DNA of 39,757 bases, from the NCBI GenBank assembly GCA_009843565.1, contig VYDF01000198.1:1-39757 (forward strand), read 5' to 3'. This document shows positions 14,897-35,974 of this stretch, one piece after another (position 1 is the first letter of the stretch; each line of letters begins with the position of its first letter). Source of the stretch: Acidimicrobiia bacterium. GTDB taxonomy: Bacteria > Actinomycetota > Acidimicrobiia > Acidimicrobiales > Bin134. A model generated the notes under the pieces. That model had not been told where the DNA came from. It worked only from the letters and a program-made list of their open reading frames with translations, and ran no database searches. Made by a program: the position numbers and the translations under genes.

Positions 14897-14921
14897 CGGT
14901 TTCTCCTCAGAGAGAACTCCA

Positions 14922-15404: not shown

Positions 15405-15496
15405 CGGATTCACGCGGCAGCGTTTAGTGTCCAAGAGGGGGTGAATGTGCTCGATGTCGATGACAAGCGATCTGCCATCGAGATCGCGGGTCGCTC

Positions 15497-16570: not shown

Positions 16571-16573
16571 CCG

Positions 16574-21397: not shown

Positions 21398-21428
21398 CTG
21401 GCAATAGCAGGAATTAGAGGAGAGGAAG

Positions 21429-22187
21429 ATGGCTGGGAAGGCACTGGCAGGCAAGAGGGCGGTTGTCACCGGCGGCGGCCGGGGGATTGGCCGAGCCATC
21501 GCGGTGGCGTTTGCCGAGGCGGGGGCCGATGTTGCGGTGAGCGGCCGCACGCCCGAGTTGCTTGAAGATACCGCCGCAGAGGTCCGCGCCCTCGGCCAAT
21601 CCGCCGGAGCGAAGGCCGCAGACCTCACCGAGGTCGGGAGCATTCCCAGCGTTTTCGCGGAGCTAGCCGATGGGCTTGGGGGATTCGACATCCTGGTGAA
21701 CTCCGCGGGAGTGCAGTTGACCGCGCCGGCGTTGGATGTCTCGGAGCAGGATTGGGATGCCACTCTCGATGCCAACCTGAAAGCGCTGTTCTTCTGCTGC
21801 CAAGCCGCGGGGAAGCACTTTGTAGAACAGGGCTCGGGCAAGATCATCAATCTCGCCTCCACGTTCAGCATTGTCGGCTTTCCTGAGTTCGCCGCCTACT
21901 GCGCTTCCAAAGGCGGCGTCATGCAGCTCACCCGGACGCTGTCTCTAGAGTGGGCCCCCCACGGCGTGAACGTCAATGCCATCGCTCCGACCGCGGTTCG
22001 AACCGAGATGAACGCCTATCTCCTCGACGACCCCGGTTTCTTGGAGGCGTTCATTCCCCATGTGCCGGCTGGGCGCGTCGGACAGCCGAGCGATGTTGCC
22101 GGTTCGGCGGTCTTCCTGGCCTCTCCGGCCTCAGACTTCGTCCACGGTCATCTGTTGTTTGTCGACGGGGGCTACACCGCGGTCTGA
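21429..22187 (+). CDS. short-chain dehydrogenase/reductase (SDR)
   Basis: TGGGRGIGRAIA (TGxxxGxG), NSAG and YCASK (YxxxK). 252 aa. SD GAGGAGAGG upstream. Confidence 0.85.
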   Translation: MAGKALAGKRAVVTGGGRGIGRAIAVAFAEAGADVAVSGRTPELLEDTAAEVRALGQSAGAKAADLTEVGSIPSVFAELADGLGGFDILVNSAGVQLTAPALDVSEQDWDATLDANLKALFFCCQAAGKHFVEQGSGKIINLASTFSIVGFPEFAAYCASKGGVMQLTRTLSLEWAPHGVNVNAIAPTAVRTEMNAYLLDDPGFLEAFIPHVPAGRVGQPSDVAGSAVFLASPASDFVHGHLLFVDGGYTAV

Positions 22188-22200: not shown

Positions 22201-23028
22201 CTAGGCGAAGACCTCGGCGTCCTCAAGGTAGCCAGATGCCTCGGTGATCTTCACCACACCGTCAAGCTCCAGCGGGGCAGTCATCCCTTTGCGGGCGTAC
22301 CACTCGCGAATCAAGGCAGGGCCATCGGTGACCAGCCCGAGGTGGAGGGAGATAACCATCAATGCGGCATCCTCAGCCTCTTGGCTTCCACCGGCCACAA
22401 TGTCGCCGGGCACGATGACCCGAAAATCTCGATTGGCGGCGTCAAAGGCAGTGGAGATTACGCAGGCATCGGTCATGGTGCCGGTGAGAACCAGGTTCTT
22501 GATGTCGAGTTGACGGAGTAAGAACTCGAAATCGGTGGGGACGAAGGCGGAGAGGCGCTTCTTGGTGCGGACGTAGTAGTCGCCTTCTTCCTCCTCGACC
22601 ATGATGTCGAGCCATTTGGTGCCTTCCCAGCTGTGCTGGTCCATCATCGGGTTTGGCGGCAAATACAGCTCGTATAGAACCCGCCAATTGGCCATGCGGT
22701 TGTACTGCTTGGAGTTCAGGTCGTCGATCCCGCCGTAGCGCTGCCAGTGCTGGACGTGGATAATCGGGATACCGACCGCCCGCGCCATACGGTGAAACAT
22801 GTTGTGAGCGGGGATCTTGGCCCGGGCCCGGGGACAAGGACAGGACAGCACTTCTTCGGGTCCAATGTGGCCGCGGTGCATGTCAATGCAGGCGATGGCT
22901 GTCTTGTCGGGGTCGAGCCAGCGATCGAATGCATCCTCGAAGTTGCTGGTGCCCGAAGGCAAAACGACGCGATCTCTACCGTCCAGATAGGCATACATCT
23001 CGGTCTTCATTGGTGGCTCGGCTTTCAT
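22201..23028 (-). CDS. isochorismatase-family cysteine hydrolase with internal insertion
   Basis: AIACIDMH (Asp), KKRLSAF (Lys) and LTGTMTDACVISTAFDA (Cys) form the D-K-C triad pattern. The start is uncertain (ATG 23028, 23010 or 22998). The track start at 23190 would overlap the upstream L gene and is rejected. Confidence 0.7.
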   Translation of the reverse strand: MKAEPPMKTEMYAYLDGRDRVVLPSGTSNFEDAFDRWLDPDKTAIACIDMHRGHIGPEEVLSCPCPRARAKIPAHNMFHRMARAVGIPIIHVQHWQRYGGIDDLNSKQYNRMANWRVLYELYLPPNPMMDQHSWEGTKWLDIMVEEEEGDYYVRTKKRLSAFVPTDFEFLLRQLDIKNLVLTGTMTDACVISTAFDAANRDFRVIVPGDIVAGGSQEAEDAALMVISLHLGLVTDGPALIREWYARKGMTAPLELDGVVKITEASGYLEDAEVFA

Positions 23029-23101
23029 TTGACTGGCTGGGTGGGCCAGAGATTCTACCGTCGTGAATTTAATCGCAATGGCAGATGAGCGCCACCAACA
23101 C

Positions 23102-25396
23102 CTAAGAGTGGTTCTGCGCTTCGAGCTGGTTGAGCACCCAATCGGGAGTGATCGGCAGGGTGCCGACCGCGCCGGGAGCGCCGAGCGCATGGCCTACTGC
23201 GGCAGCGATCGCACCGCCCGCACCGGCAATTCCGGCCTCGCCCGCCCCTTTAGCGCCCAATGGGTTCGTCGGCGTGGGGGCGTTTTCGAGAATCGCTGTC
23301 TCGATCGGCGGCAATTCGGCCGCGGTAGGGAGCAGGTAGTCCATGAAGTTGGCCGACTGGGGCTGGCCCCGCTCATCGAATGCGAACTCTTCGAGCAAGG
23401 CGCCCCCCAAGCCCTGGGCGAAACCTCCGAGCACCTGGCCTTCGACAAGCTGGGGGTTGACGGCCCTGCCCACTTCGCACCCCAGCCACACCCTATGCAG
23501 CCGCACTTGCCCCGTCTCTGCGTCGAGCGAGGCATCCACCACCACCGCTCCGTAGGGGTAGTTCATCCGCTCATCGATTCCGATCTCGCGAGCCCCGAGG
23601 CCGGGTTCCTCACCGCGGTCGGCTGATTCAAGCGTCCCGCACGCTTCGGCTATCTGGCCGAGGGTCAGCGTCCTTGCCGGGGCTCCGGCTACGTGTACCA
23701 GGCCATCGGCCAGGACCAGATCGTCGGTGGCGGCTTCGAGCAGGTCAGCGGCGATCCTCTTGGCCTTGTCGGCGGTGTGGCGGGCCGCGGCTTGCACGGC
23801 GACGCCGCCGATCACCGTCGAGCGGCTGGACCACGAACCCACCCCGTCGGGGATCAGGTCCGAGTCGCCGTAGATGACTTGTATTTGGGCCGGGTCAACT
23901 CCCAGCTCGTCGGCGGCGATCTGAGCCATCACGGTTTCGATGCCCTGGCCTGATGATGCTCCCCCGATGAACACCCGGACCGCCCCGGTGGTATCGATGT
24001 CCACTGCTCCCGTCTCGTAGAGGCCGAGCCCGCTCTTGTCCATGAAGACCGACAGGCCTACGCCCCGGTGATCCCCGTTCTCTGGCGCAAGTTCGCTATT
24101 CCACTGGGCGAGCTTCGCTCCCGCTTGGTCGATCAGCCCGATGAAGTCGCCGGAATCGAGTATGAACGACTCACCGGCCAGCTGGAACCCGGGCTCGTAG
24201 GGCAATTCGTCGGACGTGAGCAGGTTCCTCCGGCGGACTTCGGCCGGGTCGAGGCCGAATTCGACCGCGGCGACGTCCAACAGCTGCTCTCGGGCCACGG
24301 TCAGCTCGTAGCGGCCCGGCGCCCTATACGGACCCACCGGGGTCTTGTTGGTGGTGATGACATGGATCTTCGATGCGTAGGCGGGCAGTCGATAGGGCCC
24401 GGGGATCATTCCCAAGGTGAGTTCGGAGACAATCACACCGGTGGGGCGGATGTAGGCGCCCTTGTTGTGCCACACTTCCGCCTCAAGGCCAAGCAGGCGC
24501 CCATCGGTATCGAAGGCGGCCCGCAGAAGGTGGGTTTGCTCGCGGGCGTGGTTTGTGGTGGTGAGGTTCTCGGCCCGGTCCTCGATCCATTTGACCGGAC
24601 CGCCGGTGAGGATTGCGGCGTAGGCAACCAGAAAGTCCTCGGGAAAGAAGTCGCCGCGGACTCCGAAGCTCCCACCGGCATCGGTGGAGCGCATGTGAAT
24701 GCTGGCTGGCCGACGCGAAAGCAGGCGGGCCAGGACCTGTCGGTGATAGTGCGTGACGAGTGTCGCGCCCCAAACCGTGAGTTGGTCGCGGCCGGGGTCG
24801 AAGTCGCAGACCAGCCCTCTCGTCTCGAGCGGTACGCCGGAGTGGCGGCCGATCGAGACTTCCGTGGTCAACACCCGTGCCGCTTGGTCAAATGCGGACG
24901 CAATGTCGCCGTATCCCTTCTCCAGGACACAGATCTCGTTCGACGAGTCAGCCCAGAGAGACAGTTCGTCAGGGGCGCGGCGCATATCGACTACGGCATC
25001 GAGCGGGTCGATGTCGACGACCACCGTCTCGGCAGCATCCTCAGCCAGATACGGATCTTCGGCGAGAACAATTGCCACCGGTTCACCCACGTAGCGAACC
25101 CGGTCTTGAGCCAATACCGGTTGCAGTGCTCGTTCCAACCCGAGGCCGTCGAAGGGCAGCCGGAGCGGAATGGGCTCGACATGGGCGACATCAGCGCCGG
25201 TGAGCACCAAACGGACGCCGGCCATGGCCTCAGCTGCTGAAGTGTCGATCCCCACCACTTGACCGTGGGCATAGGTTGAGCGCACCGCCCTCATCCACAG
25301 TTGGCCGGGCAGATCGACGTCGTCGACAAATCGACCCGCACCACGCAAGAGACGAGGGTCTTCAAGTCGAGGTATGGAAGCCCCTACATTTCCCAT
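23102..25396 (-). CDS. molybdopterin-binding large subunit, xanthine dehydrogenase family (no adjacent M/S genes)
   Basis: MGNVGASIPRLEDPRLLRGAGRFVDD, YVGEPVA, AGGSFGVR, EVGRAVNP, AKGAGEAG. 764 aa. GGGAG SD. Confidence 0.9.
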   Translation of the reverse strand: MGNVGASIPRLEDPRLLRGAGRFVDDVDLPGQLWMRAVRSTYAHGQVVGIDTSAAEAMAGVRLVLTGADVAHVEPIPLRLPFDGLGLERALQPVLAQDRVRYVGEPVAIVLAEDPYLAEDAAETVVVDIDPLDAVVDMRRAPDELSLWADSSNEICVLEKGYGDIASAFDQAARVLTTEVSIGRHSGVPLETRGLVCDFDPGRDQLTVWGATLVTHYHRQVLARLLSRRPASIHMRSTDAGGSFGVRGDFFPEDFLVAYAAILTGGPVKWIEDRAENLTTTNHAREQTHLLRAAFDTDGRLLGLEAEVWHNKGAYIRPTGVIVSELTLGMIPGPYRLPAYASKIHVITTNKTPVGPYRAPGRYELTVAREQLLDVAAVEFGLDPAEVRRRNLLTSDELPYEPGFQLAGESFILDSGDFIGLIDQAGAKLAQWNSELAPENGDHRGVGLSVFMDKSGLGLYETGAVDIDTTGAVRVFIGGASSGQGIETVMAQIAADELGVDPAQIQVIYGDSDLIPDGVGSWSSRSTVIGGVAVQAAARHTADKAKRIAADLLEAATDDLVLADGLVHVAGAPARTLTLGQIAEACGTLESADRGEEPGLGAREIGIDERMNYPYGAVVVDASLDAETGQVRLHRVWLGCEVGRAVNPQLVEGQVLGGFAQGLGGALLEEFAFDERGQPQSANFMDYLLPTAAELPPIETAILENAPTPTNPLGAKGAGEAGIAGAGGAIAAAVGHALGAPGAVGTLPITPDWVLNQLEAQNHS

Positions 25397-25426
25397 GGTG
25401 CTGCTCCCGTCGACTTGGGCAAGCCG

Positions 25427-26950
25427 TTACGAGACCCCCACCGGACTTCCGGCCATGGCCAAGGCCAGGTCATCCATATCCAGCTCGTCCACATCCCGCT
25501 CCAGCACAACCCGCCCCCGATACATCACCGCCACGCGGTCGCTGAGCTTTAGCAGCTCATCGAGGTCCAAAGACAGAAGGAGCACGGCCGCGCCCGCCTC
25601 TTTGACTTGGAGGAGTCGGCGGTGAACGTAGTCCACCGCGCCAACGTCGAGTCCCCATGTGGGATTGTCGGCAATGAGGACCTTTGGGTTCCGCGAGAAT
25701 TCGCGGGCTAACACAACCTTCTGCTGATTGCCGCCGGAGAGGGAGCCGGCCATAAGGCCTGAATCAGCGGGCCGAACGTTGTATTCCTCCAACAAGGCGT
25801 CGGATTGTCGCCGGATTCGCTTCCAGTCGAGGAGTCCCCGACGGCTGAACTTGCCCGCGGGGATCTCGTTGATGGCCAGGTTCTCGGCCAGGGTCATGTC
25901 CAGAATCAGCCCCCAGCCGTGGCGGTCTTCAGGAATGACGGCCAAGCCGCTGTCGCGTAGACGAGCCGGCTCGGAGCCAGTCATGTCCATGCCGTCAATC
26001 CGCACAGTGCCGGACTCGAGGTGGCTAAGCCCGGTGATGGCGTTGACGACATCGCGCTGTCCGTTTCCCTCCACTCCGGCGATCCCAAGAATCTCACCGG
26101 CCCGGACCGACAGGCTCAACCCGTCAAGGGAATTGCCCCCCACCCCAGTTGTGGCCAGATCGCTTACTTGGAGTATGGCGTCGACGTCGTCTTCCAACGA
26201 CGTGTGGTCCACCTTGATGGTGCTGATCTCCCTGCCGGTCATCGCCCTGGTGAGGGTGCGTTCATCGAACTCTCCCCGTTCTACCTCTGCCACCTTCTTG
26301 CCGGCGCGAATCACGGTGACTCGGTCCGCCACCTGCGTGACTTCGGCCAGCTTGTGGGTGACCAGCACAATCGAATGCCCGCGAGAGCGCAGATCTTCCA
26401 AGATGCTCAGCAAATTCTCGATTTGCTGGGGCCCGAGCAGCGATGTCGGCTCGTCGAGAATCAGGATGCTGGCCCCGCGATAGAGAACCTTCAGGATCTC
26501 AACCCGTTGCTGAAGGTCGACCGGGAGATCGCGGACCGGAGTCGATGCCGGCATTGGCATTCCGAATTTGTCGGCCAGCGCGGTGATCTCACGACGAACG
26601 GCCAGGGGCTTGAGGCGCAGGTCTAGGACCGGGCGCGATCCGAGCACGATGTTCTGCGCCACCGTGAACGTGGGGACCAGTGAGAAGTGCTGGTGCACCA
26701 TCCCGATGCCCAGCGCGAGGGCGTCATGGGGGGATGTGATTTCGGCAGGCTTCTCTCTGACCAAGATGGAGCCGGAATCGGGCAGGACATGGCCGAACAT
26801 GACGTTCATCAGCGTGGTCTTGCCGGCGCCGTTCTCACCGAGCAGGACATGGATCTCGCCGGCCCGCAGGTCGAAGTCGATGCCATCGTTGGCTTGAACA
26901 TCGCCGAAGCGCTTGGAGATGCCCCGGAGTTCTACAACCGTCTCAACCAC
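25427..26950 (-). CDS. ABC transporter ATP-binding protein, duplicated ATPase (BMP/sugar-type importer)
   Basis: Two ABC halves. Walker A is GENGAGKTT, signature LSGGNQQK, Walker B ILILDEPT / LIADNPT. GTG start overlaps the stop of the upstream M24-like gene by 8 nt. Confidence 0.9.
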   Translation of the reverse strand: MVETVVELRGISKRFGDVQANDGIDFDLRAGEIHVLLGENGAGKTTLMNVMFGHVLPDSGSILVREKPAEITSPHDALALGIGMVHQHFSLVPTFTVAQNIVLGSRPVLDLRLKPLAVRREITALADKFGMPMPASTPVRDLPVDLQQRVEILKVLYRGASILILDEPTSLLGPQQIENLLSILEDLRSRGHSIVLVTHKLAEVTQVADRVTVIRAGKKVAEVERGEFDERTLTRAMTGREISTIKVDHTSLEDDVDAILQVSDLATTGVGGNSLDGLSLSVRAGEILGIAGVEGNGQRDVVNAITGLSHLESGTVRIDGMDMTGSEPARLRDSGLAVIPEDRHGWGLILDMTLAENLAINEIPAGKFSRRGLLDWKRIRRQSDALLEEYNVRPADSGLMAGSLSGGNQQKVVLAREFSRNPKVLIADNPTWGLDVGAVDYVHRRLLQVKEAGAAVLLLSLDLDELLKLSDRVAVMYRGRVVLERDVDELDMDDLALAMAGSPVGVS

Positions 26951-28103
26951 AGCGAATCAGCTCCCTCGGGTGCTTTTGGGTCACCTCAACTCCGTCGGGA
27001 CGAAGCCACATTGAGTCTCCCACTTGGACGCCTGCTCGTGCCGAAAGGTCGATGACATTGGGCTGAACAACCAGGACCGTGCCGTCGGGATAAGACCAAT
27101 CGTCGGGATGGGTGGCACCGCGATTTGAACGGGTGCGAACAATGGGGGCCAGATAGCCGCCGCCGCCGTAACAATGCACGAGATCGTCCCAGATGTCGAA
27201 ACCCGCTTGGTGTATGGACTCGGCTCGGTCCAATACCTCACCGATTGTCGTCCCAGTGCGCATAGTGCTCACAATGCTGGAGTATGTGTTCTCTGCTACT
27301 TCGTACATCTCCTGGTAGAGCGGCGTGGGTTCCCCCTCGATACAGAGTGTTCTCAGGATCTGTCCGGTATAGCCCCAAAAGGTGGTGCTGATCTCGGTCA
27401 CCAAAATGTCTCCGGATTGGATAAGCCGGTCGGGCTGGTATTGGTGGGGCACGAAAAACTCCGGATTAGCCATGGAAGTGGTGAGGGTGAAGTGGATGAG
27501 GTTGGTCCCGCGGCGATCGAGATAGACGCTCTCGATCACCTTGGCCAGCTCGTACTCGTTCATCCCCGGTGTGGCATGTGACGCCAGCGCCGCCACGGCG
27601 TCGTCATTCATGCTGGAGGCGATGCGGACGTACTTCATCTCCTCTTCGGTCTTAGTCTGGCGAATGGCGTAGTAGTCGGCGTTGAGATTGACCAGGCGCT
27701 CTGACCCGAAAGCGGCCGCGTCGGTGTAGGGGACCACACCTATTGTGCCGATGCGGCGGTACCCGTTGAGGCGCTCGGCCACGCGGGCTACCAGATCTGA
27801 ATGATCGTCGCCGCCGAAGCTGATGTTCTCAATGGTTGAGATTCGCTCGGCGTCAGGAATGTGATTCCAGAGCCGAACCACCATTTCCGGGTCGGCGTCG
27901 CGGGGCACGATCAAATACACCGGGAACAGCGGCGGCCAGTTGCAGTAGTACTGGACCGACGTGTCGTGAGGCCCCGTGGCCCCGCCGATCAAAACAGCAT
28001 CGAGGTCATCGCGTTCCATGAGCTCTCGAAGCTGGCGATAGCGACTAGCCATCTCCTCGGGTGAGTATCTCGGGTAACCGTTGACTTGCGGGATCTCATC
28101 CAT
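26943..28103 (-). CDS. M24-fold (creatinase/prolidase-like) protein lacking most canonical metal ligands
   Basis: The Creatinase_N-like N-terminus and pita-bread C-domain are alignable by eye to the M24 enzyme at 2702..3922. Ligand positions instead read VTEIS, GYTGQILRT, VHCYGGGG, VVQPN and VQVGD, against FIDIG, FADIGRT, IGHGIG, AVEPL and RIEDMV. Confidence 0.7.
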   Translation of the reverse strand: MDEIPQVNGYPRYSPEEMASRYRQLRELMERDDLDAVLIGGATGPHDTSVQYYCNWPPLFPVYLIVPRDADPEMVVRLWNHIPDAERISTIENISFGGDDHSDLVARVAERLNGYRRIGTIGVVPYTDAAAFGSERLVNLNADYYAIRQTKTEEEMKYVRIASSMNDDAVAALASHATPGMNEYELAKVIESVYLDRRGTNLIHFTLTTSMANPEFFVPHQYQPDRLIQSGDILVTEISTTFWGYTGQILRTLCIEGEPTPLYQEMYEVAENTYSSIVSTMRTGTTIGEVLDRAESIHQAGFDIWDDLVHCYGGGGYLAPIVRTRSNRGATHPDDWSYPDGTVLVVQPNVIDLSARAGVQVGDSMWLRPDGVEVTQKHPRELIRCG

Positions 28104-30264
28104 TGATGGCCCTCCAGATCTTCTCGGGGGAGAGGGGCATATCGAGATGTTCTACACCCCATGGTGCCAAAGCGTCGAGAACCGCGTTGTGGACCGCCGG
28201 TGTCGTCCCGATGGTGGTGGCCTCGCCGATGCCCTTGACGCCCAGCCTGTTCAAAGGCGTTGGCGTCACCATGCTGTTGATTTCATAGGAGGGCAGCTCT
28301 CGGGCCGAGGGGGCGAGATATTCGAGCAGTGTCGACGTCATGGGTTGTCCATCGGCGGCGTAGGCCAACTCCTCCCATAGGGCTTGGGCCGCTCCCTGGG
28401 CGATCCCACCGTGCTGTTGGCCTTGGGCGAGCATGGGGTTGATGACGTTGCCGCAATCGTCAACGGTGATATGGCGGATCATCCGCACCGCTCCGGTTTC
28501 GCGATCGACCTCGACAACCGATATGTGCGAACCCGACGGATATGTCCGGGCCCCTTGATCGAAATCGAATTCCACCGCCAACGGTGCCAGGTCTGCCCAA
28601 CCGATCGCGGTGGCGGGGCTGCCAATGATGCCGACCCCGACACCTTCGTAAATGACCATGTCGGCGGTATTGGCCTCCAAACGCTCAGCTGCCAGCACGC
28701 AGGCCTGTTCCACAACTGCTCTTGCCGCCTCGTCGACGGCGCTGCCGGCCAACTGGAGTGAACGCGAGCCATAGGTTCCATTTCCACGGGGAACGACGCC
28801 GGTATCCGACTGGACAACGCGGACCTTGTCTATCGGCAGGCCCAATTGGGCGGCGGCGATCTGGGCGTACGTGGTCTGGTGGCCTTGACCCTGAGACGAA
28901 ACACCGCAGAGAACGGTGGCGCTTCCATCCAGTTCGATGGCGACGGAGGCAAACTCCTCCGTGGGTCCGTTACCGGTCACCTCGATGTAGCTGGAAACAC
29001 CGATTCCCAGGAGCCACTGGTCGCCTCGGGCCCGACGCAGGGACTGCTCCTGACGCAGTGACTCATAACCGGCCAACTCGGCGACTCGGTCAAGAGTCCC
29101 GCGATAGTTGCCGGAGTCGTACACCGCGCCGCTGGGGGTGACGTGGTCGGTGCTGTGACTCTCGAGAAGGTTGCGCCGTCGGAGCTCAACCGGGTCCATT
29201 TGGAGCTCACGAGCCAACAGATCCATCGACCGCTCGAGGAAAGCAGTGGCCTCCGGCCGCCCCGCTCCTCGGTATGCGCCAACCGGTGCCGTGTTCGTCA
29301 CCATGCTCCGTGCTCTGAAGTCAACCCGGGGGATGCGATACGTCCCTGTGCACATAAGCCGGGTGTAGTTGGGGAGCCAAGCGCCGACATGAGGGTAGGC
29401 GCCGGCATCGGCAATCACTTCGACTCGGATGCCGGTGATCGTTCCGTCTCGTTTGGCGCCTAACGCAACCCGTTGAATTTGGCCCCGTCCGGGAGTCATA
29501 TTGAGCAGATTCTCGGAGCGGGTCTCCTGCCAGGCCACCGGCTGGCCGGTTCGATGGGCGATTGCCGCCACCACGATGTGCTCGGGATAGGTATGGCCCT
29601 TGGCCCCGAATCCTCCCCCCACTGCTGGGGCGATCACCCGAACGCGGTTCGGATCGAGATTCAGAGCAGCAGCAACAGACGCCTGGTTGTCCCACGGAAA
29701 CTGCGTGGAGACCCAAATGCACAAGCCGGCGCCATCGTCGTCGGGCACAACCAGGATGCTGTTGGTCTCCAAGGGCACCGGAGCCAGCTTCTGATTGACA
29801 AACGCGGCCTCGACGACCACCTCGGCGTCCTCGAGCGCAGAGGGATCCACCAGCGGCTCGACTTCGAACGCCACTTCACTGCTCTCCTCGGCCGAGACCA
29901 CGGCGGGGAGTGATTCGATCTCCACCTCCACGTCACCGGCGAGATCCTGGGCTTCAGCAAAGCTCCTGCCGGTGACGACGGCGATCGGGTCTCCGACATA
30001 TCGAATCTTGTCCACCACCAGTAGATCTCGCGCGTACCGGTCGGGAGTTGGTGGCCACGGCACGAGCTTGGGCAACTCCAGCGACGCAGCGGTGTATAGG
30101 CCGGGGCTGCCGATCACGCTCACGAGCTTGCCGTGGGCAACGGGGGAGCGGATGAAGCAGGAGTGAAGCGTGTCGCTGGTGATGAGGTCGGCGGTGAACG
30201 GCTGGTTGCCGGTCAGCAGGCCATCATCCTCGACGCGTAAAACGGAATTGCCAAGGATGCTCAA
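28096..30264 (-). CDS. molybdopterin-binding large subunit, xanthine dehydrogenase family (no adjacent M/S genes)
   Basis: MSILGNSVLRVEDDGLLTG, YVGDPIA, VGGGFGAK, GAYRGAGRPE, DCGNVINP, VKGIGEA. 722 aa. TTG start. Its 3' end overlaps the M24-like start by 8 nt. Confidence 0.9.
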   Translation of the reverse strand: MSILGNSVLRVEDDGLLTGNQPFTADLITSDTLHSCFIRSPVAHGKLVSVIGSPGLYTAASLELPKLVPWPPTPDRYARDLLVVDKIRYVGDPIAVVTGRSFAEAQDLAGDVEVEIESLPAVVSAEESSEVAFEVEPLVDPSALEDAEVVVEAAFVNQKLAPVPLETNSILVVPDDDGAGLCIWVSTQFPWDNQASVAAALNLDPNRVRVIAPAVGGGFGAKGHTYPEHIVVAAIAHRTGQPVAWQETRSENLLNMTPGRGQIQRVALGAKRDGTITGIRVEVIADAGAYPHVGAWLPNYTRLMCTGTYRIPRVDFRARSMVTNTAPVGAYRGAGRPEATAFLERSMDLLARELQMDPVELRRRNLLESHSTDHVTPSGAVYDSGNYRGTLDRVAELAGYESLRQEQSLRRARGDQWLLGIGVSSYIEVTGNGPTEEFASVAIELDGSATVLCGVSSQGQGHQTTYAQIAAAQLGLPIDKVRVVQSDTGVVPRGNGTYGSRSLQLAGSAVDEAARAVVEQACVLAAERLEANTADMVIYEGVGVGIIGSPATAIGWADLAPLAVEFDFDQGARTYPSGSHISVVEVDRETGAVRMIRHITVDDCGNVINPMLAQGQQHGGIAQGAAQALWEELAYAADGQPMTSTLLEYLAPSARELPSYEINSMVTPTPLNRLGVKGIGEATTIGTTPAVHNAVLDALAPWGVEHLDMPLSPEKIWRAING

Positions 30265-30275
30265 CTAGAGAGTGC

Positions 30276-31643
30276 TCAGCTCGGCGGCACATAGGCGATC
30301 AGGTCCATGAGGAACTGGGCGCCGGGTACTTGAAGTGGCCCGCCGATCTCCAGAGTTGTCGACGCGGGCCGATCACCGGGGAAGTAGCTGGCCCACTGTT
30401 CGATGGACTGCTGGAAATGGGTGAAGTCGTCGTGGAAGCACTGGCGTCTCACGATGTTCTCCACGCTGGTGCCAGCCGCCTCGCAGATAGCCGAGACGTT
30501 GTCCATGATGTAGGCCATCTGGAGTTTGGGAGGTTGCCCGTACCACGGGAACTCCGGATGGCGCTGGACCGACGCAGGCAGGTTGCCGAGTTCGTCATAG
30601 GCAATGGCGGTGCTGAAGAACAGGAAATCGCCCGCTTTGACGGCCTGAGGCTCGTGCCACGGCGGCTGAACGGCATCAGAGGTCTCTATCGTCTCTATTT
30701 CGATCGAAGCATCGTCGGCCAAGACCTTGAGGGCGATCTCGATACGGCTTCCCTTGCCGCCCAGCCCCATGTAGGGAATCACCACGCGGGCCGGAGGGTT
30801 CTCGGGGAACCACTGCTTCCAAACTCTTTCCATTCCGGCAAAGTCGCCCGGGCTGGCCAGATACACGGTGGCCTTCACGGTGTTCCGGATCGAACCACCG
30901 GCGGCCTGGACGATCTTCTCCAGTTTCTGGAGGACGTATTCGGTTTGGCTCTCTATCTCCGATCCGTACCAGTAATACGGATTGACCCGAGCTTCGGGGG
31001 CGATGCCGCTGGGGGTGCCCATGTCCTTGTCCTGGAGGTAGTCGCCCATCCAGTCGACGGGAATCTCTCCGGCGCAGAAGATCCAGTCGCCCCGCCGAAT
31101 GGCCGGCGAATAGCCGGCCAACGGCGACGGGACGCCCTCGGGGACTTCGAAGCCCTCGCTGCCGCCGCCAGGGATGGCGATCATGTCGACTTCGAGGATG
31201 GTCTTGTTCACAAGCAGCCCGGTTTCGCGGATGCCCATTCCGGTTGAGGCCGGCCGCGGCGGGTGCACATACTCGTCGCGAGTCCGCAGATACGGGGTGA
31301 TGCTGATCTTGGGCCAGGAGTTGCCCTCCCAGAATTCGTCGATGGTCGGATGGGGAGAGGAGAACCACTGGTAGATCCGCACGATGTCGGTGGCAATGTC
31401 GCAGCCCGCTGCCTCCAGGGTCATTTGGAGGTTTTGCAGCACAAAGTGAGATTGAAGCTCGAGGGCGTCGTATCCGTTGGGGTTGCGACCGTCACCGCCG
31501 GCCTCGGGCGCGAGACCCGTCACGAAATCCGACGCCAACTGTCCGGCTACAAAGACCCATCCACCGGCCTTGATTGCGGGACTGTAGGGCATGAGGGGTT
31601 TGGGCTCACCGCCCCATACGGCAACGCGATCGTTCTCAGCCAT
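30276..31643 (-). CDS. protein composed of three tandem RidA/YjgF/L-PSP-like domains
   Basis: 455 aa. Three repeats each start with a Y/A-x-x-A-[IV]-[KR]-x-G-[GD]-[WF]-[VIL]-F and end with a [VI]E[VI]-type strand. D1 is ~aa 15-157 (YSPAIKAGGWVFVAGQ...RPASTGMGI...LEVDMIAI). D2 is ~aa 175-309 (YSPAIRRGDWIFCAGE...PPARVVI...IEIALKVL). D3 is ~aa 330-453 (PQAVKAGDFLFFST...RPASTTLEI...LMDLIAYV). ATG 31643 has an AGGAGAGG SD. Confidence 0.75.
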   Translation of the reverse strand: MAENDRVAVWGGEPKPLMPYSPAIKAGGWVFVAGQLASDFVTGLAPEAGGDGRNPNGYDALELQSHFVLQNLQMTLEAAGCDIATDIVRIYQWFSSPHPTIDEFWEGNSWPKISITPYLRTRDEYVHPPRPASTGMGIRETGLLVNKTILEVDMIAIPGGGSEGFEVPEGVPSPLAGYSPAIRRGDWIFCAGEIPVDWMGDYLQDKDMGTPSGIAPEARVNPYYWYGSEIESQTEYVLQKLEKIVQAAGGSIRNTVKATVYLASPGDFAGMERVWKQWFPENPPARVVIPYMGLGGKGSRIEIALKVLADDASIEIETIETSDAVQPPWHEPQAVKAGDFLFFSTAIAYDELGNLPASVQRHPEFPWYGQPPKLQMAYIMDNVSAICEAAGTSVENIVRRQCFHDDFTHFQQSIEQWASYFPGDRPASTTLEIGGPLQVPGAQFLMDLIAYVPPS

Positions 31644-31739
31644 GATGTCCTCTCCTGTTCAACTTTCGTTGTTGTTCGATGTTCCTATGGTCGTGGGGGG
31701 TCGCGACGGCAAGCACTTGGCGCATTTTCGTAGAACTTA

Positions 31740-31773
31740 CCCGGGGGCGGGAACCGAAGTTCCACGCCCCGGG
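31740..31773 (-). terminator. GC-rich stem-loop with UUCG tetraloop between the binding-protein gene and the triple-RidA gene (attenuator or mRNA-stabilising hairpin)
   Basis: The plus strand is cccgggggcgggaac-cgaa-gttccacgccccggg. That gives ~14 bp with two single-base bulges. On the transcribed minus strand the loop reads UUCG. There is no clear U-tract, so it is not a classical intrinsic terminator. Confidence 0.35.
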
Positions 31774-31802
31774 CAAGCCCATTGCTCAAGACCGTCGGCT
31801 GG

Positions 31803-33005
31803 TTAGCGTGGCGTGCAGCCGAGAGCAGTTACGTCGATGGATGCAGCAGAACCAGCGGCACCGATGGTGGGGTCTCCGGCAGTCTCATCGGGGATGGTGA
31901 TCTCCCCGGTGCGGACCTTGGCATCGATGTCTTCGAAGATCGCCCAGTCTTCATCGGTGAGCACACCGGCATTGTCATACAGCGGTGCGGCGATGATGCC
32001 GGCAGTGTTCGTGACGTCGAACTGATGGTACGACCCCGGACCGATCTCGCCGGCGTAGGCCCGCTCGATCATGGCTTGGCCGGCATCGGCCAGTCCGTGA
32101 ACCGCCGAAGTGAGCACGACGTCGGGAGCGATGTCGAAGCTGTCGTAGTACGACGGAACCACCCAAACCTGGGTGTCTGCTTCCTGGGCGGCATCGATGA
32201 TGCCCAGCACCGCTTGGTCAGTAGCCGAAAGGATCACATCGGCGCCGCTGGCGATGAGGGACTGCGCGGCCGCTTTGGCCACCGCGGTGTCGACCCAGGT
32301 GTTGATGTACTCCTGTTCGAAGCCGATGTCGGGATTCACGCACCGGGCACCCAGGTGGAATGCCTCGGGCTGGCGGGTCAGCGCCGGGAACTCGAAGCCA
32401 TTGAGTGAGCCGATTGTTCCGGTCTCTGTGGCCAGTGCGGCGATGACACCGGTCAAGAAGTTGGCGTTGTGCTGATCGACCTCCACCCAGCACATGTTGT
32501 CGGGAATCGGCGGCGCATCCGGAGCAGGATGGTGAGGTGCCATGCAAATTTGAGTATCAGGGAAGTTGGTTGCTACCTGGATCGCGGGGTCGACCATGGC
32601 GCCATGGGCAAAGAGAAGGAAGTCGTAGCCCTGGTCGGCGAACGCCGAACCTTGCTGAACATAGGCATCCGGCTCATTGAGCAGCTCGACGAACTCAAGT
32701 TCGAGGTTCGGAACATTGGCAGCCGCCGCCTGAGCGCCATCCCACCATGCGTTCGACCAGCTGATGTCGTCGTTGGTCCCCGGGTAGAAGAAGGCGACGC
32801 GGAACGGCTCCATCGGCTCCGGTTCTGGTTCTGGTGCGGGGGCCTCCGTCGCGGCCGGTTCTGGTTCTGGTGCGGGGGCCTCCGTCGCTGCCGGCTCTGG
32901 CGCCGGAGCCGCGGGCTCGTCATCGTCGTCGTTCCCGCAGGCGGCGACGACCAGCGCGAGCGCGAAAAAGATGGCTAGAAATTTCAATAGTCGATGGATT
33001 GACAT
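31803..33005 (-). CDS. BMP-family (PnrA/Med-like) ABC transporter substrate-binding lipoprotein
   Basis: Signal peptide plus lipobox (LALVVAAC-G), then a Pro/Glu/Ala-rich linker, then a BMP-type periplasmic-binding-protein body (FFYPGTNDDISW..., GFEFPA..., ADVILSATD...). Confidence 0.85.
   Translation of the reverse strand: MSIHRLLKFLAIFFALALVVAACGNDDDDEPAAPAPEPAATEAPAPEPEPAATEAPAPEPEPEPMEPFRVAFFYPGTNDDISWSNAWWDGAQAAAANVPNLELEFVELLNEPDAYVQQGSAFADQGYDFLLFAHGAMVDPAIQVATNFPDTQICMAPHHPAPDAPPIPDNMCWVEVDQHNANFLTGVIAALATETGTIGSLNGFEFPALTRQPEAFHLGARCVNPDIGFEQEYINTWVDTAVAKAAAQSLIASGADVILSATDQAVLGIIDAAQEADTQVWVVPSYYDSFDIAPDVVLTSAVHGLADAGQAMIERAYAGEIGPGSYHQFDVTNTAGIIAAPLYDNAGVLTDEDWAIFEDIDAKVRTGEITIPDETAGDPTIGAAGSAASIDVTALGCTPR
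32821..32892. repeat. two tandem copies of a 36-bp unit (35/36 identical) inside the lipoprotein linker-coding region
   Basis: Unit 32821-32856 is ggttctggttctggtgcgggggcctccgtcgcggcc. Unit 32857-32892 is identical except g->t at unit position 33. Degenerate related sequence flanks it. On the minus strand it encodes the repeated ...EPEPAATEAPAP... linker. Confidence 0.85.
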
Positions 33006-33080
33006 ATCCCCCCCTAGGATTTAGGCCCTTTCGGCCTCACCACTAAATGTAGAGCGCAATCGTCGTAAGCGCCAGCGAGG

Positions 33081-34013
33081 TCACGCCCGACCTGCCGCCT
33101 CCCGCCGCCACGGGATGCCCACCGCTGCCGGATACCGGCTGCCTCGCGACAACAACACGGCGAGCACGGTCGCGACATAGGGCAAAGCCAGCCAGACCTG
33201 GCTGGGAACGCCTTCGGTCAGGTCCACCCGGCCGGCAACGAACTGGAGGGCCTGGCTGAGACCGAACAATGCCGATACGGCGAGCGCCCAGAACGGGTTC
33301 CATCGGGCAACCACCACCACGCCAAGGGCGATGAAGCCGCGGCCTTCGGTCATGCCCGGCACAAATCCGCCAGCCGAAGACATAACCAGGGCGCCCCCGC
33401 CTAGCGCCGCCAATCCGTTGGCCAGGATCACAGCCGGATAGCGCAAACGCTGCACGTCGAGCCCGCCGGACTCGGTGGCATGAGGTCGCTCGCCCGCGGC
33501 CCGGGCGTACAAGCCCCACCATGTGCGATATATCAGATAGAAGACGAGGACAACGATGGCCAGAGTGATCCAGAACATGGCGTCCTGTCCGTTGAGCACG
33601 TCACCGACCTTGGGAATATCGCCGAGAAGGGGGACGTCCAACGGCGAAAGCGTTGGTCCGATCTGGCCGCCGACGAATCGGTCGTCCAGCAACCCGGTGA
33701 GACCGAGCGCGAACACATTGAACAGAAGGCCGGTCACGATCTGATCTGTGCCCCGGTAGACGTAGAGGAACGCCAAGATCACCCCGGCGCCCATCCCGGT
33801 GATCCAGCCTAGGACCAGTGCCAGCGTGACGCTCTCGGTATTGATTCCCACCAGCGCGGTGATGAGCGCCCCGATCAGCATCGATCCCTCGATGCCCACA
33901 TTGAGGACGCCGCTACGCTCGGAAATGGTCTCGCCCAGTGCCGCCAGCAATATCGGCACCATCAACTGCAAGCCAGTGGCGAAGAAGGCGATGACGACGG
34001 CTTCGGTTGGCAT
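33081..34013 (-). CDS. ABC transporter permease (BMP/ribose-type, branched-chain-AA-transporter-like fold)
   Basis: 310 aa, highly hydrophobic multi-TM. Its start shares one base with the stop of the upstream permease gene (TGATG). Confidence 0.85.
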   Translation of the reverse strand: MPTEAVVIAFFATGLQLMVPILLAALGETISERSGVLNVGIEGSMLIGALITALVGINTESVTLALVLGWITGMGAGVILAFLYVYRGTDQIVTGLLFNVFALGLTGLLDDRFVGGQIGPTLSPLDVPLLGDIPKVGDVLNGQDAMFWITLAIVVLVFYLIYRTWWGLYARAAGERPHATESGGLDVQRLRYPAVILANGLAALGGGALVMSSAGGFVPGMTEGRGFIALGVVVVARWNPFWALAVSALFGLSQALQFVAGRVDLTEGVPSQVWLALPYVATVLAVLLSRGSRYPAAVGIPWRREAAGRA

Positions 34014-35098
34014 CAGTCGCTCACGTTCTGGGCGTAGCGGAATCGGATGACTCCGGTGACCATCAGCAAGATCACGAAAACGGCAACGATGATGTCACCC
34101 AACGAGGGAGATATATCCGCGGAGGCTTGCAGGCTGTTGCTCCCCACCCGCAGCATTGCGAACAAGAAGGCAGCCGGAATGATCATCGGGGGTTTCAATC
34201 TGGCCAGTAGCGCCACGGCAATGCCAATGAATCCGTAGTTGCTGGAAAAGTTGATGTCGAGATCGTCGAAGATTCCGGCGACGGCAACCCCGCCGGCCAG
34301 TCCGGCAAACCCGCCAGCCACCATGAAGGTAAGCAAGGTCACCTGCTTGGTCCGGACCCCGGCCAGTCGGGCGGTGTTGACGTTGGCCCCGATCGCTCGA
34401 ATGGAAAAGCCAAGCGATGTCTTGGCCATCAAGAGCCAGGCCAGGGCAGCCGCCAACACGGCGATGACCACGCTGATGTCGACGGTAGCGTCCTTCCAGA
34501 TCACCGGGAATTTCGCGTTCTCGGCTATCGAGATGGTCTTCTGGCTAAAGGGGTCGGGCCAGACCTCGGAAATTATGTAGTTGGCGATGAACACGGCGAC
34601 AAAGCTCAACATCAGCGTCGTAACGATCTCGCTCGCGCCGTAGAAGGCTTTGAGGGCGCCGGGGATAAGGCCCCAAATCGCTCCACCGATAAACGAGCCC
34701 AGGATGACGATGACGACGAACAGTGGTCTTGGGGTGCCAGACGGCAATTCGATTCCCAGGAATACCGCAGCGATTGCGCCGGCGAACATCTGGCCTTCGC
34801 CCCCGATGTTCCAGAGTCTCGACGTAAACGGCAAGGCAGCAGCCAGTCCGGTGAGCGCCAGAATGGCGCCGATCATGAGGGTCTGCCCAAGGAAGAACGG
34901 CTCGATAAGCGACCCTTCGATGATTGCCTTGGCCGCCTCCCATGGATTGGCTCCGATGGCCAGGATCAGCACGGCAATGAGGACGAGGGTGAGAATCAGC
35001 GAATAGATGGTGTTGACATAGGCAGGCAGCTCTGAGCCGGTGGACAGCCTCCACCAAGGTCGCGCCGGTTGCCCGATTTCGTCGGCTTGGCTCACCAA
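34013..35098 (-). CDS. ABC transporter permease (BMP/ribose-type)
   Basis: 361 aa multi-TM. TTG 35098 or GTG 35095 start directly after GGGGGGAG. First gene of the minus-strand string. Confidence 0.85.
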   Translation of the reverse strand: MVSQADEIGQPARPWWRLSTGSELPAYVNTIYSLILTLVLIAVLILAIGANPWEAAKAIIEGSLIEPFFLGQTLMIGAILALTGLAAALPFTSRLWNIGGEGQMFAGAIAAVFLGIELPSGTPRPLFVVIVILGSFIGGAIWGLIPGALKAFYGASEIVTTLMLSFVAVFIANYIISEVWPDPFSQKTISIAENAKFPVIWKDATVDISVVIAVLAAALAWLLMAKTSLGFSIRAIGANVNTARLAGVRTKQVTLLTFMVAGGFAGLAGGVAVAGIFDDLDINFSSNYGFIGIAVALLARLKPPMIIPAAFLFAMLRVGSNSLQASADISPSLGDIIVAVFVILLMVTGVIRFRYAQNVSD

Positions 35099-35184
35099 CT
35101 CCCCCCGCTGTCAGTAGGCGGGAGACTAGCCGCGACTCTTGAACTTCGCTCAAAATGGTCGGCCACCGGGGACGGCAATTCCGG

Positions 35185-35230: not shown

Positions 35231-35596
35231 GTGCAAGTAGTCCGAGCCTCGGAGCCCGGGCCGGTTTTGCCTGTCGTTGAGACTGGTGGATCGTCACGTG
35301 CCGTGGTGTGGCCTGGATCGGGGGCGCAGCAGCGATCCTTGCACCTCATAAACCTCGATCCCGGTGGGCGCACCGTTGATCTGAGCCATGGCTCGGAATG
35401 CGTGTACCACGTCTCAGCCGGTTCCGGAACCATGGTCGATCTCGATACCGACGAGAACCACGAGGCCATAACCGGATCTATGTTCCTCATCGAGCCGGGA
35501 ACGAACTACCAGTTCACCGCGGGGCAGCAAGGGGCTGTCCTCGTGGGAGGGCCCTGTCCTCCCGATCCTGCGCTCTACAAGCATCTAGGAGATTGA
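35231..35596 (+). CDS. cupin-domain protein, paralogue of the next gene with partly degenerate metal site
   Basis: Aligns by eye along its full length with 35600..35974 (VVWPG...LDPGG...VGGPCPPD). The proposed GTG at 35231 gives the same N-terminal length as the paralogue. The track start at 35069 overlaps the divergent permease. Cupin motif positions read DLSHGSE and EPGTNY, against PHAHSESE and PMGVKH. Confidence 0.55.
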   Translation: MQVVRASEPGPVLPVVETGGSSRAVVWPGSGAQQRSLHLINLDPGGRTVDLSHGSECVYHVSAGSGTMVDLDTDENHEAITGSMFLIEPGTNYQFTAGQQGAVLVGGPCPPDPALYKHLGD

Positions 35597-35599
35597 ACA

Positions 35600-35974
35600 A
35601 TGGCGATCAAGCAATTCCACCGAGACAAGCCCGACCACTACATGCCATTGATCTCCAAAGACGCCCGCCTCGTGGTTTGGCCCGGGGTGGGCTCTGAGAT
35701 GGCGAACATGAACTACGTCGTGCTCGAGCCCGGTGAGGAGAACGTTCCCCATGCTCATTCCGAGTCGGAAGACACAATCTTCATTCTCGAGGGTCGCGGG
35801 TCGGTCGCTGATCTCGACAACGACTGTGTGCTCGAGTTCCAAGCTGGCGACACAGTTCATGTGCCCATGGGGGTCAAGCACGCGGTTCGGGCTGACCGCG
35901 GCAGCCGGATCGTGAGCGTCGGCGGGCCATGCCCCCCTGACAGATACTTGCTCGAACTGTGCGGCGCCCTGTGA
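35600..35974 (+). CDS. cupin_2-type metal-binding protein
   Basis: Canonical cupin motifs G-x5-HAH-x3-E (GEENVPHAHSESE) and G-x5-P-x-G-x2-H (GDTVHVPMGVKH). AGGAG SD 9 nt upstream of ATG 35600. Confidence 0.75.
   Translation: MAIKQFHRDKPDHYMPLISKDARLVVWPGVGSEMANMNYVVLEPGEENVPHAHSESEDTIFILEGRGSVADLDNDCVLEFQAGDTVHVPMGVKHAVRADRGSRIVSVGGPCPPDRYLLELCGAL

Follow-up and report, generated by a model that had tools for sequence, protein, structure and literature searches.

Organisation of the nine-gene string

Nine consecutive genes occupy the minus strand between positions 22201 and 35098 of the 39,757-nucleotide stretch of contig VYDF01000198.1 analysed here (assembly GCA_009843565.1, an Acidimicrobiia bacterium; hereafter the window). 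They encode, in order of reading, two ATP-binding cassette (ABC) permeases, a BMP/PnrA-family substrate-binding lipoprotein, a protein made of three RidA domains (3x-RidA), a CoxL-type molybdenum (Mo) hydroxylase large subunit, a metal-less M24-fold protein, a two-domain ABC ATPase, a second CoxL-type large subunit and an isochorismatase-family cysteine hydrolase (Table 1). Pfam and NCBIfam scans gave each gene a family, with Pfam E-values of 1e-20 to 1e-77. These E-values, together with a dN/dS of 0.01-0.12 for all nine genes against two relatives, which indicates purifying selection, and an order and spacing that recur in 14 genomes, make the string one conserved unit and more than a product of chance. 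As judged from the encoded families, it probably represents an importer-coupled catabolic operon for a small nitrogen compound, in which the Mo-hydroxylases would act on an N-heterocycle.

Open reading frame (ORF) coordinates and start-codon inspection reveal tight spacing at five junctions. Besides the base shared by the two permease genes, overlaps of 8 nt occur at 28096-28103 and 26943-26950, and spacers of 11 nt and 30 nt separate 30276 from 30264 and 25427 from 25396, respectively. The TTG start of the first CoxL thus sits 11 nt after the RidA stop, without a Shine-Dalgarno (SD) sequence. Larger gaps flank the binding-protein (Bmp) gene, with 75 nt before and 159 nt after it, and 91 nt separate the stop of the second CoxL from the hydrolase gene when the latter starts at 23010. 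This start, an ATG opening the sequence MKTEMY, is the one conserved in comparison with relatives, and not 23190. Similarly, the alignment of 14 related loci shows GTG 35095 to be the conserved start of the first permease, the TTG at 35098 being a TAG in relatives.

An earlier note on this DNA had given the same gene order, which the ORF table and the family scans bear out for every gene, and had quoted the same five junctions, all of them correctly; the three larger gaps do not figure in it. Its wording for individual proteins is also sound: the 'binding lipoprotein' has a signal peptide with lipobox VAAC, the 'metal-less' M24 protein has lost its ligand positions as judged by motif, and the 'cysteine hydrolase' contains an Asp-Lys-Cys triad.

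Table 1 Features of the nine-gene string, its expression signals, the flanking operons and related minimal operons. Positions are those of the window unless a locus is named.
Feature	Position	Strand	Evidence and remarks
ABC permease A (BPD_transp_2)	34013-35095 (ORF to 35098)	-	Pfam 9.4e-38; start GTG 35095
ABC permease B (BPD_transp_2)	33081-34013	-	Pfam 2.2e-28; ATG shares base 34013 with the preceding stop (TGATG)
BMP/PnrA-family substrate-binding lipoprotein	31803-33005	-	PF02608 2.9e-44; lipobox VAAC
3x-RidA, 455 aa	30276-31643	-	PF01042 (Ribonuc_L-PSP), three copies
First CoxL-type Mo-hydroxylase large subunit	28096-30264	-	Ald_Xan_dh_C, MoCoBD_1 and MoCoBD_2; start TTG 30264
Metal-less M24-fold (pita-bread) protein	26943-28103	-	Peptidase_M24 PF00557 2.6e-20
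Two-domain ABC ATPase	25427-26950	-	ABC_tran, two copies
Second CoxL, KdhL-like Mo-hydroxylase large subunit	23102-25396	-	Match to 7DQX, E 1e-214
Isochorismatase-family cysteine hydrolase	22201-23010 (ORF to 23190)	-	PF00857 4.5e-26; start ATG 23010
Promoter-like motif TTGAGC (35153-35148), 19 nt, TAGTCT (35128-35123)	35123-35153	-	Conserved blocks, 14 related loci
GC-rich hairpin, ~17 bp, no U-tract	31736-31777	-	Within the 159-nt gap 3' of the binding-protein gene
Divergent operon: degenerate cupin 35231-35596; metal-binding cupin 35600-35974; CN-hydrolase 35959-36825; CoxM 36822-37664	35231-37664	+	Pfam
Fourth CoxL-type large subunit	37661-39757	+	Pfam; runs off the window end
Convergent operon: RidA 13306-13734; DUF1989 13949-14896; CoxS 14922-15404; DHPON-hydrolase-like 15497-16570; old yellow enzyme (OYE) 16574-17764; CoxM 17764-18615; CoxS 18612-19091; CoxL 19088-21397; short-chain dehydrogenase/reductase (SDR) 21429-22187	13306-22187	+	
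2,6-dihydroxypyridine-hydroxylase-like	3987-5267	+	2VOU match 9e-71
EamA 5278-6213; PF04199 cyclase 6225-7364; OYE 7283-8479	5278-8479	-	Pfam; 3IB3 match listed for the 3987-10315 region
CocE/NonD S15 hydrolase	8573-10315	+	Adjoins 3x-RidA in other lineages
Minimal 3x-RidA operons (Rhodoglobus, Pantoea, Beijerinckia)	L083 6001-14092; L075 5461-12564; L080 5253-12651		

Conservation of gene order and spacing

Related loci were collected by scanning one genome per species with a 3x-RidA alignment, which gave 80 loci, and all proteins of the window were mapped by tblastn onto 85 loci, synteny within +/-10 kb being scored mainly with these proteins as queries. The 85 loci contain 3x-RidA by construction and are phylogenetically redundant, with many close Acidimicrobiales and with two entries (L003 and L042) on the same contig; nearly all are metagenome-assembled genomes (MAGs), and a few taxon labels may reflect mis-binning. 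The nearest loci, 92-99% identical, belong to complete or near-complete MAGs of Acidimicrobiales and 'Candidatus Poriferisocius', a lineage that appears sponge-associated judging by its genus name and the sources of the MAGs. Throughout this group the tblastn map displays the identical nine-gene order, with the first CoxL missing from two genomes. The junction geometry is conserved at the nucleotide level in 14 genomes, being -1 between the permeases, +11 between RidA and CoxL (TTG, no SD), -8 between CoxL and M24 and -8 between M24 and the ATPase, while the ATPase/CoxL spacing varies from 19 to 31 nt. Among the enzymes, 3x-RidA and the hydrolase have the lowest dN/dS against the two relatives. 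Lack of the neighbourhood in all relatives was one of two outcomes named in the earlier note as refuting its claim; in the 3x-RidA-based search the neighbourhood is, on the contrary, clearly conserved.

Other Acidimicrobiales have the order permease-permease-Bmp-hydrolase-3xRidA-CoxL-ATPase, the M24 gene occupies the CoxL slot in soil actinobacterial MAGs, and Thermoleophilia have a contiguous ATPase-permease-permease-Bmp set followed by 3xRidA-hydrolase. The isochorismatase-family gene is the commonest partner of 3x-RidA among the loci; the M24 gene is found in just 23 of them and DUF1989 in 10. The separation of the ATPase from the rest of the importer by three enzyme genes, already remarked upon in the earlier note, is confirmed by the gene order and is no peculiarity of the window, as enzyme genes precede the ATPase gene in 41 of the 85 loci; the latter is contiguous in 5 and divergent in 6. 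No BMP transporter lies nearby in 23 of the 85, mostly Proteobacteria. In plasmid sequences, megablast returned short ABC-ATPase matches only and tblastn with 3x-RidA returned none at E<=1e-30.

Other Acidimicrobiales (L021-L037, L003/L042) follow their homologous operon with a Liv-type ABC transporter and a Rieske/VanA_C oxygenase (21 loci), neither of which is present in the window. The Rieske/VanA_C oxygenase and Liv transporter genes may provide for N- or O-demethylation of a methylated variant of the substrate.

Expression signals of the string

Only one conserved promoter-like element was found for the string; it lies upstream of the first permease and precedes a short leader and a GGGG(T/G)GAG ribosome-binding site. 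The TTGAGC-19-TAGTCT motif would act as a promoter. With its 19-nt spacer it was missed by the consensus promoter scan, which returned 1 site against 3.8 expected; terminator-like sites numbered 6 against 10.2 expected, so that neither class is enriched, and all six terminator-like sites lie inside genes. The Rfam search of the whole window returned nothing, leaving no riboswitch to explain the leader or the hairpin, and the divergent intergenic region yielded no inverted-repeat operator.

The 159-nt gap that follows the binding-protein gene has a fold energy of -56.8 kcal/mol and contains a hairpin of a kind unique in the window. Of 13 related loci, 10 keep this hairpin, with compensatory substitutions, and it is absent from L009 and L012, where the gaps measure 35-47 nt. 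Hairpins enable excess expression of the binding protein in other ABC operons; the one described here could terminate, attenuate or stabilise transcripts and probably allows an excess of binding protein.

Co-transcription and translational coupling are supported, as predictions, for most junctions because the tight junctions are conserved and the promoter-like motif is the sole conserved one. The earlier note had gone further and proposed obligate co-translation. The overlapping and near-overlapping junctions conserved in 14 genomes and the single promoter-like motif agree with coupling, but 'obligate' is too strong a word and goes beyond the evidence in view of the three larger gaps and the hairpin.

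Mo-hydroxylase large subunits and their partners

Both CoxL proteins contain the hammerhead and two Mo-cofactor-binding domains recognised by Pfam, and both keep the GGSFG/GGGFG motif and the catalytic Glu (GAGE/GIGE), the first CoxL displaying GGGFG, AYRGAGR and GIGE. The second CoxL shares 46% identity across 757 columns with KdhL, the 6-hydroxypseudooxynicotine dehydrogenase large subunit (7DQX), and 45% with kdhC of Paenarthrobacter nicotinovorans pAO1; by these identities it appears to belong to the described enzyme type KdhL. The earlier note did not recognise the enzyme combination from any described pathway, which is fair for the core of 3x-RidA, cysteine hydrolase and BMP importer but not for this CoxL. 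The first CoxL is about equidistant from CoxL, CutL and QorL (quinoline oxidoreductase) among its PDB relatives. Its loop reads AYRGAGR, which is form II-like, and that of the second CoxL reads PYRAPGR; neither has the cysteine loop AY(X)CSFR of form I CO dehydrogenase.

Sponge symbionts have very many CoxL-like genes, for which CO dehydrogenase is a frequent annotation, and Actinobacteria are especially CoxL-rich (PMC8941161). More than half of the sponge-symbiont COG1529 (CoxL-like) proteins have no assigned substrate, and the form II CoxL of these symbionts are considered non-CO enzymes (PMC8941161). Aerobic CO dehydrogenase is also among the top NCBIfam names for the two window proteins, which would fit genes that share no common pathway, stand together by mere adjacency and include CoxL for CO or other lithoheterotrophic oxidation. 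Such an arrangement is scarcely credible, however, as order and overlaps are conserved across many genomes and no coxM or coxS is adjacent. Form I aerobic CO dehydrogenase itself was rejected, the scores being 426-578 bits against NCBIfam cut-offs of 950-991 and the Cu-binding Cys loop being absent.

The string encodes neither a FAD (CoxM) nor an Fe-S (CoxS) subunit. In the window as a whole, four CoxL genes compare with two CoxM and two CoxS genes (14922-21397, 23102-30264, 36822-39757), the CoxM and CoxS genes being sited in the convergent and divergent operons, and relatives have one more CoxS and one more CoxL just past the position of the window end. This imbalance implies that several Mo-hydroxylases would share their FAD and Fe-S subunits. 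The convergent operon, identified with Pfam and given refined gene starts, is the likely source of these subunits for the two CoxL of the string.

The BMP-type importer

The importer consists of the PF02608 lipoprotein, a pair of BPD_transp_2 permeases and a single ATPase in which two nucleotide-binding domains are fused. In the binding protein, the signal peptide and lipobox VAAC are followed by a Pro/Glu/Ala linker. For all four components the best NCBIfam model is 'putative B6 ABC transporter', a family for import of a pyridine compound, in every case below cut-off (85 vs 400 bits for the binding protein). The ATPase is by all indications cognate to the permeases of the string, because its best NCBIfam family is common to the permeases and the binding protein and because its orthologue adjoins the permeases in Thermoleophilia. 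By family membership the lipoprotein, permeases and ATPase form an importer, which would take up the substrate predicted from the enzyme context. Vitamin B6 catabolism, raised by the best family of the transporter, was rejected since the scores are sub-cut-off and no B6-pathway enzyme exceeds its cut-off among the proteins scanned with NCBIfam.

The solved relatives of the binding protein are remote (E ~1e-21) and include 7X0R ('Lbp'), the best match, followed by AtzT (6PI5), an atrazine-binding protein, as well as 3S99 and the purine-nucleoside receptor PnrA (TmpC, 2FQW). The earlier note had moved from membership of the BMP family to a nucleoside or nucleobase substrate. This is a weak step, as the closest curated transporter is a putative vitamin-B6 importer and the solved relatives match only at E ~1e-21.

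Architecture and distribution of the 3x-RidA protein

The '3x-RidA' class was named without an assigned function (Niehaus et al. 2015, PMC4433059), and searches of open-access text found neither a function assigned to any 3x-RidA nor a description of the present gene combination. The AlphaFold (AF2) model of the window protein is a pseudo-trimer (pLDDT 83, pTM 0.88). Its best Foldseek matches are the chorismatases 5AG3, 5A3K and 4BPS (E 3e-12, TM 0.50/0.66, ~408 columns, 12% identity); single-domain RidA and RutC rank next, the single-domain RidA proteins superposing at TMt 0.8-0.88. No chorismatase family match was obtained for 3x-RidA in NCBIfam or Pfam, and RutC, among its best named matches, scores 89.6 bits against a cut-off of 169 bits. 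The alignment places the catalytic-type carboxylate-binding Arg in domain 2 only, as the invariant R286 accompanied by E302, and domain 2 resembles a canonical RidA deaminase. The equivalent positions in domains 1 and 3 are occupied by Ser (S133 and S428), the invariant motifs being PA-S133, PPA-R286 and PA-S428. The importance of this Arg, which corresponds to Arg105 in the RidA paralogue TdcF of E. coli, is documented (PMC4433059). The model suggests a single-chain pseudo-trimer that probably has one active site and lies outside the chorismatase sequence family.

The search of 1.84 billion representatives retrieved 147 clusters (50% identity) at E<=1e-30. Among the best matches, ~117 cluster representatives have 62-71% identity and four are closer (81-93%), with near-full coverage and ~455 aa. 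No fusion to another domain occurs in the best 150 matches, whose full-length members measure ~400-500 aa. Members from Actinomycetota and Pseudomonadota are 58-64% identical to each other.

Minimal operons in Rhodoglobus, Pantoea and Beijerinckia comprise a GntR or TetR regulator, a CUT2-type importer with a BMP-type or Peripla_BP_4-type binding protein, 3x-RidA and an MFS transporter, and no other enzyme. Cultured carriers include Beijerinckia sp. L45. The 3x-RidA protein is the invariant partner of the importer, and because it is the sole enzyme in these minimal operons, its substrate is probably either the imported molecule or the first product made from it. In Proteobacteria its commonest enzyme neighbour is a CocE/NonD hydrolase 62-70% identical to the window gene at 8573-10315; such high identity across phyla suggests either a conserved functional pair or a recent horizontal transfer. 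Reading the proteobacterial loci as Rut variants was rejected, as their luciferase-like genes do not encode RutA and their alpha/beta hydrolase resembles PcaD.

The chorismatase fold raises a further explanation, in which a sugar-like or conjugated compound with a 1-carboxyvinyl (enol-ether or enamine) group is imported and split by 3x-RidA as chorismatase splits chorismate, the Mo-hydroxylases and hydrolases being lineage-specific add-ons that use the leaving group. Chorismatase is the best structural match, minimal units of importer, 3x-RidA and MFS transporter exist, proteobacterial versions have Peripla_BP_4 sugar-type binding proteins with SDR, GFO_IDH_MocA and HIBDH neighbours, and the commonest partner gene belongs to the isochorismatase family, a family of vinyl-ether hydrolases. 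We nevertheless regard this explanation as very unlikely, given the 12% identity to chorismatases without a family match, a domain 2 that looks like a canonical RidA deaminase, the lack of a candidate natural substrate and a strongly pyridine-like window context that would be left as coincidence.

Active-site residues of the cysteine hydrolase and the M24-fold protein

The catalytic triad of the cysteine hydrolase is formed by Asp103, Lys211 and Cys243 (ORF numbering). Its PDB matches are BiuH, RutB and N-carbamoylsarcosine amidase (CSHase), all of them remote (E 1e-8 to 1e-6), and the best named NCBIfam models score far below their cut-offs (56 vs 370 bits for BiuH and 38.9 vs 378 bits for RutB).

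The ligand positions of the M24 protein read E/Q/H?/Q/G, compared with D, D, H, E, E in the paralogue encoded at 2702-3982. Creatinase likewise lacks metal ligands, and this loss is the only feature that the M24 protein shares with it; no Creatinase_N match was found in Pfam and no creatinase occurs among the PDB matches at E<=1e-3. The paralogue at 2702-3982, a second M24 protein of the window, contains a Creatinase_N domain and all five metal ligands.

Pyridine-pathway homologues in the flanking operons

The lower nicotine pyridine pathway of pAO1 has been described (PMC6214936), and its enzymes find homologues on both sides of the string. The DHPON hydrolase homologue of the convergent operon matches 2JBW with an E-value of 3.5e-91 and is 43% identical to the pAO1 enzyme, and the corresponding identities are 38% for the 2,6-dihydroxypyridine hydroxylase, 33% for the cyclase and 25% for the CN-hydrolase. 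The cyclase, CN-hydrolase, paired small cupin, 2,6-dihydroxypyridine-hydroxylase-like and Amidohydro_2 genes recur beside 3x-RidA in other actinobacterial lineages, and the divergent operon is conserved next to the transporter in most actinobacterial loci. No NdhL orthologue, 6-hydroxynicotine oxidase or FAD amine oxidase was found in the window. Because these are lacking, the window appears to encode a hydroxypyridine route that is related to the nicotine pathway but distinct from it. Nicotine itself would be an unlikely substrate in a marine sponge symbiont.

Several flanking genes are of a different character. The left end of the island encodes an allantoinase/dihydropyrimidinase-like amidohydrolase (192-1322) and an Amidohydro_2 decarboxylase-like protein (1163-2650). 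An AtzD/TrzD ring-opening amidohydrolase on the minus strand (10874-11971) passes the NCBIfam cyanuric acid amidohydrolase cut-off (417 vs 360 bits) and is divergent from an amidase-signature (AtzE-like) gene (12009-13253), after which comes the single-domain RidA gene (13306-13734). The AtzE-like and RidA genes would form a second amidase and RidA pair of the same logic, possibly part of a separate cyanurate/barbiturate-type pathway. In the 85-locus map AtzD lies outside the conserved neighbourhood. The two small cupins (35231-35974) both end in a C-terminal GGPCPPD motif and only the second has the HxH...E...H ligands, which suggests a heteromeric cupin with one metal site.

These genes bear on two further substrate classes. 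In the first, nucleoside or nucleobase uptake would be combined with oxidative catabolism: the BMP protein would bind a nucleobase, the CoxL proteins would resemble xanthine or uracil dehydrogenases, and the hydrolase and RidA protein would act as RutB and RutC on a ureido-enamine. The BMP family with PnrA among its solved relatives, the presence of RutB and RutC among the best matches of the hydrolase and the RidA protein, and the allantoinase/dihydropyrimidinase-like and AtzD/barbiturase-family genes of the window are in keeping with this class, which we nonetheless consider unlikely. The ORFs scanned include no nucleoside hydrolase, nucleoside phosphorylase, uricase, HIU hydrolase or RutA, the RutB, RutC and XdhA scores are all far under the equivalog cut-offs, RutA is not what the luciferase-like genes beside proteobacterial 3x-RidA encode, and the enzymes with the clearest assignments are homologues from the pyridine pathway, AtzD standing apart from the conserved neighbourhood. 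The substrate proposed by the earlier note is therefore only partly supported, and the enzyme context points to a pyridine/pyridone-type heterocycle rather than a nucleoside.

The second class comprises ureide, guanidine or triazine-type compounds (biuret, cyanurate, guanylurea or creatinine-like), for which the hydrolase would be a carbamoyl amidohydrolase and the M24 protein an amidinohydrolase. It draws on the best matches of the hydrolase (BiuH, RutB and N-carbamoylsarcosine amidase), on an M24 protein without metal ligands like creatinase, on the recurrence of DUF1989 in 10 loci, on AtzT as second-best solved relative of the binding protein and on the cyanuric acid amidohydrolase, above its equivalog cut-off, and AtzE-like amidase of the window. 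Every match is remote, however, the M24 gene occurs in 23 loci only, no carboxylase or allophanate hydrolase lies beside DUF1989, and AtzD is not in the conserved neighbourhood. Such a substrate would also leave unexplained the 46% KdhL-like CoxL and the DHPON hydrolase, 2,6-dihydroxypyridine hydroxylase and cyclase homologues, and we consider it quite unlikely.

Proposed catabolic route

Sequence evidence inclines us, by a little, to view the string as an operon of a sponge-associated 'Ca. Poriferisocius'-like Acidimicrobiales that combines a BMP CUT2-like importer with the upper aerobic pathway for a nitrogen compound, most likely of the pyridine/pyridone type, with ligand, activity and transcripts as predictions. 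Taken by itself, the assignment of the substrate to the pyridine/pyridone type is tentative, quite possible but short of probable.

In the route we propose, the lipoprotein, the two permeases and the two-domain ATPase would import the compound. At or very near the start, the 3x-RidA protein would add water to a C=N or C=C-N/O bond that adjoins a carboxylate, giving ammonia (or an amine or alcohol) and an oxo-acid; this step is suggested because 3x-RidA is the sole enzyme in minimal operons and by the known chemistry of RidA and chorismatase. The Asp-Lys-Cys hydrolase may then strip an amide or carbamoyl nitrogen, following the logic of RutB and RutC. The two CoxL proteins would hydroxylate ring carbons next to N, presumably on substrates of this kind and with FAD and Fe-S subunits from the two neighbouring operons, and the metal-less M24 protein could serve as an accessory creatinase-like (non-metallo) hydrolase. 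By analogy with pAO1, the flanking homologues of DHPON hydrolase, 2,6-dihydroxypyridine 3-hydroxylase, cyclase and CN-hydrolase would finish the route to 2-oxoglutarate and ammonia. The tight or overlapping junctions would provide translational coupling and the hairpin an excess of binding protein.

Several observations weigh against this interpretation. The nearest characterised relatives of the hydrolase (BiuH, RutB and CSHase) act on ureido compounds, and a cyanuric-acid-hydrolase-type gene, an allantoinase-like gene and DUF1989 occur on the island as well, all of which would fit a ureide or triazine substrate. The FAD amine oxidase and NdhL orthologue are missing from the window, and the hairpin and the three larger gaps leave room for sub-operonic expression. 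The core of importer and 3x-RidA, whether or not the hydrolase is added, is also found in loci devoid of Mo-hydroxylases, and in Proteobacteria it is accompanied by sugar-type binding proteins, SDRs, a CocE/NonD hydrolase and carbohydrate-like neighbours. Because the core occurs without Mo-hydroxylases and with sugar-type binding proteins, the imported molecule need not be a pyridine.

A broader and more speculative proposal, which we hold to be somewhat unlikely, is that the CUT2 importer and 3x-RidA constitute a widespread and hitherto undescribed import-and-hydrolyse module, often joined by an Asp-Lys-Cys or CocE/NonD hydrolase. A single-site enzyme of chorismatase fold would perform the first committed, oxygenase-independent hydration or cleavage, and sponge Acidimicrobiia would have recruited form II and KdhL-like Mo-hydroxylases to create a new mineralisation route for N-heterocycles of the pyridone type. 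If true, this would assign a substrate class to some members of the CoxL expansion of sponge symbionts, so far unexplained, and, should the module free ring nitrogen as ammonia, it would bear on nitrogen recycling in sponge holobionts.

Comparison with known systems

The closest parallel to the island is the pyridine cluster for nicotine of pAO1. The window contains homologues of all five lower-pathway enzymes (KdhL at 45-46%), and in both systems the KdhL gene stands apart from the genes of the M and S subunits, with a small cupin and a CN-hydrolase nearby. In contrast to pAO1, KdhL is the only one of these enzymes encoded within the string and the window has no NdhL orthologue or 6-hydroxynicotine oxidase, while the 41 kb inspected of pAO1 contain no BMP importer, 3x-RidA, isochorismatase-family or M24 gene. 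The Rut pathway displays a similar pairing of an isochorismatase-family protein (RutB) with a RidA-family protein (RutC), in which an amidohydrolase frees an enamine that is then the substrate of an enamine/imine deaminase. However, the RutA/RutD/RutF set is absent here, with no luciferase-like gene among the window ORFs scanned, the RidA domains are fused as a triple, and Mo-hydroxylases replace the oxygenase.

Chorismatases (FkbO, Hyg5 and XanB2) are, like 3x-RidA, single-chain pseudo-trimers of RidA-like domains, but domain 2 of 3x-RidA keeps the Arg and Glu of RidA type and its context is catabolic and importer-linked, not that of secondary-metabolite biosynthesis. BMP/PnrA importers of the CUT2 type ('putative B6 ABC transporter') have the same four-component set, from which the present one differs by an ATPase gene split off by enzyme genes. 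The form II CoxL of sponge symbionts resemble the product of 28096-30264 in the AYRGAGR loop, although here the gene is fixed inside an importer and catabolic operon.

The operon frames two CoxL beside an importer and pyridine-pathway enzymes and so provides a short, testable substrate list for part of the sponge CoxL expansion, and 3x-RidA, strongly conserved and importer-linked, is a good target for enzyme discovery. Clusters of Mo-hydroxylases for N-heterocycles with dedicated transporters are already known; what is new is the core of importer, 3x-RidA and cysteine hydrolase, the presence of form II and KdhL-like CoxL within a transporter operon, and the sponge-symbiont host.

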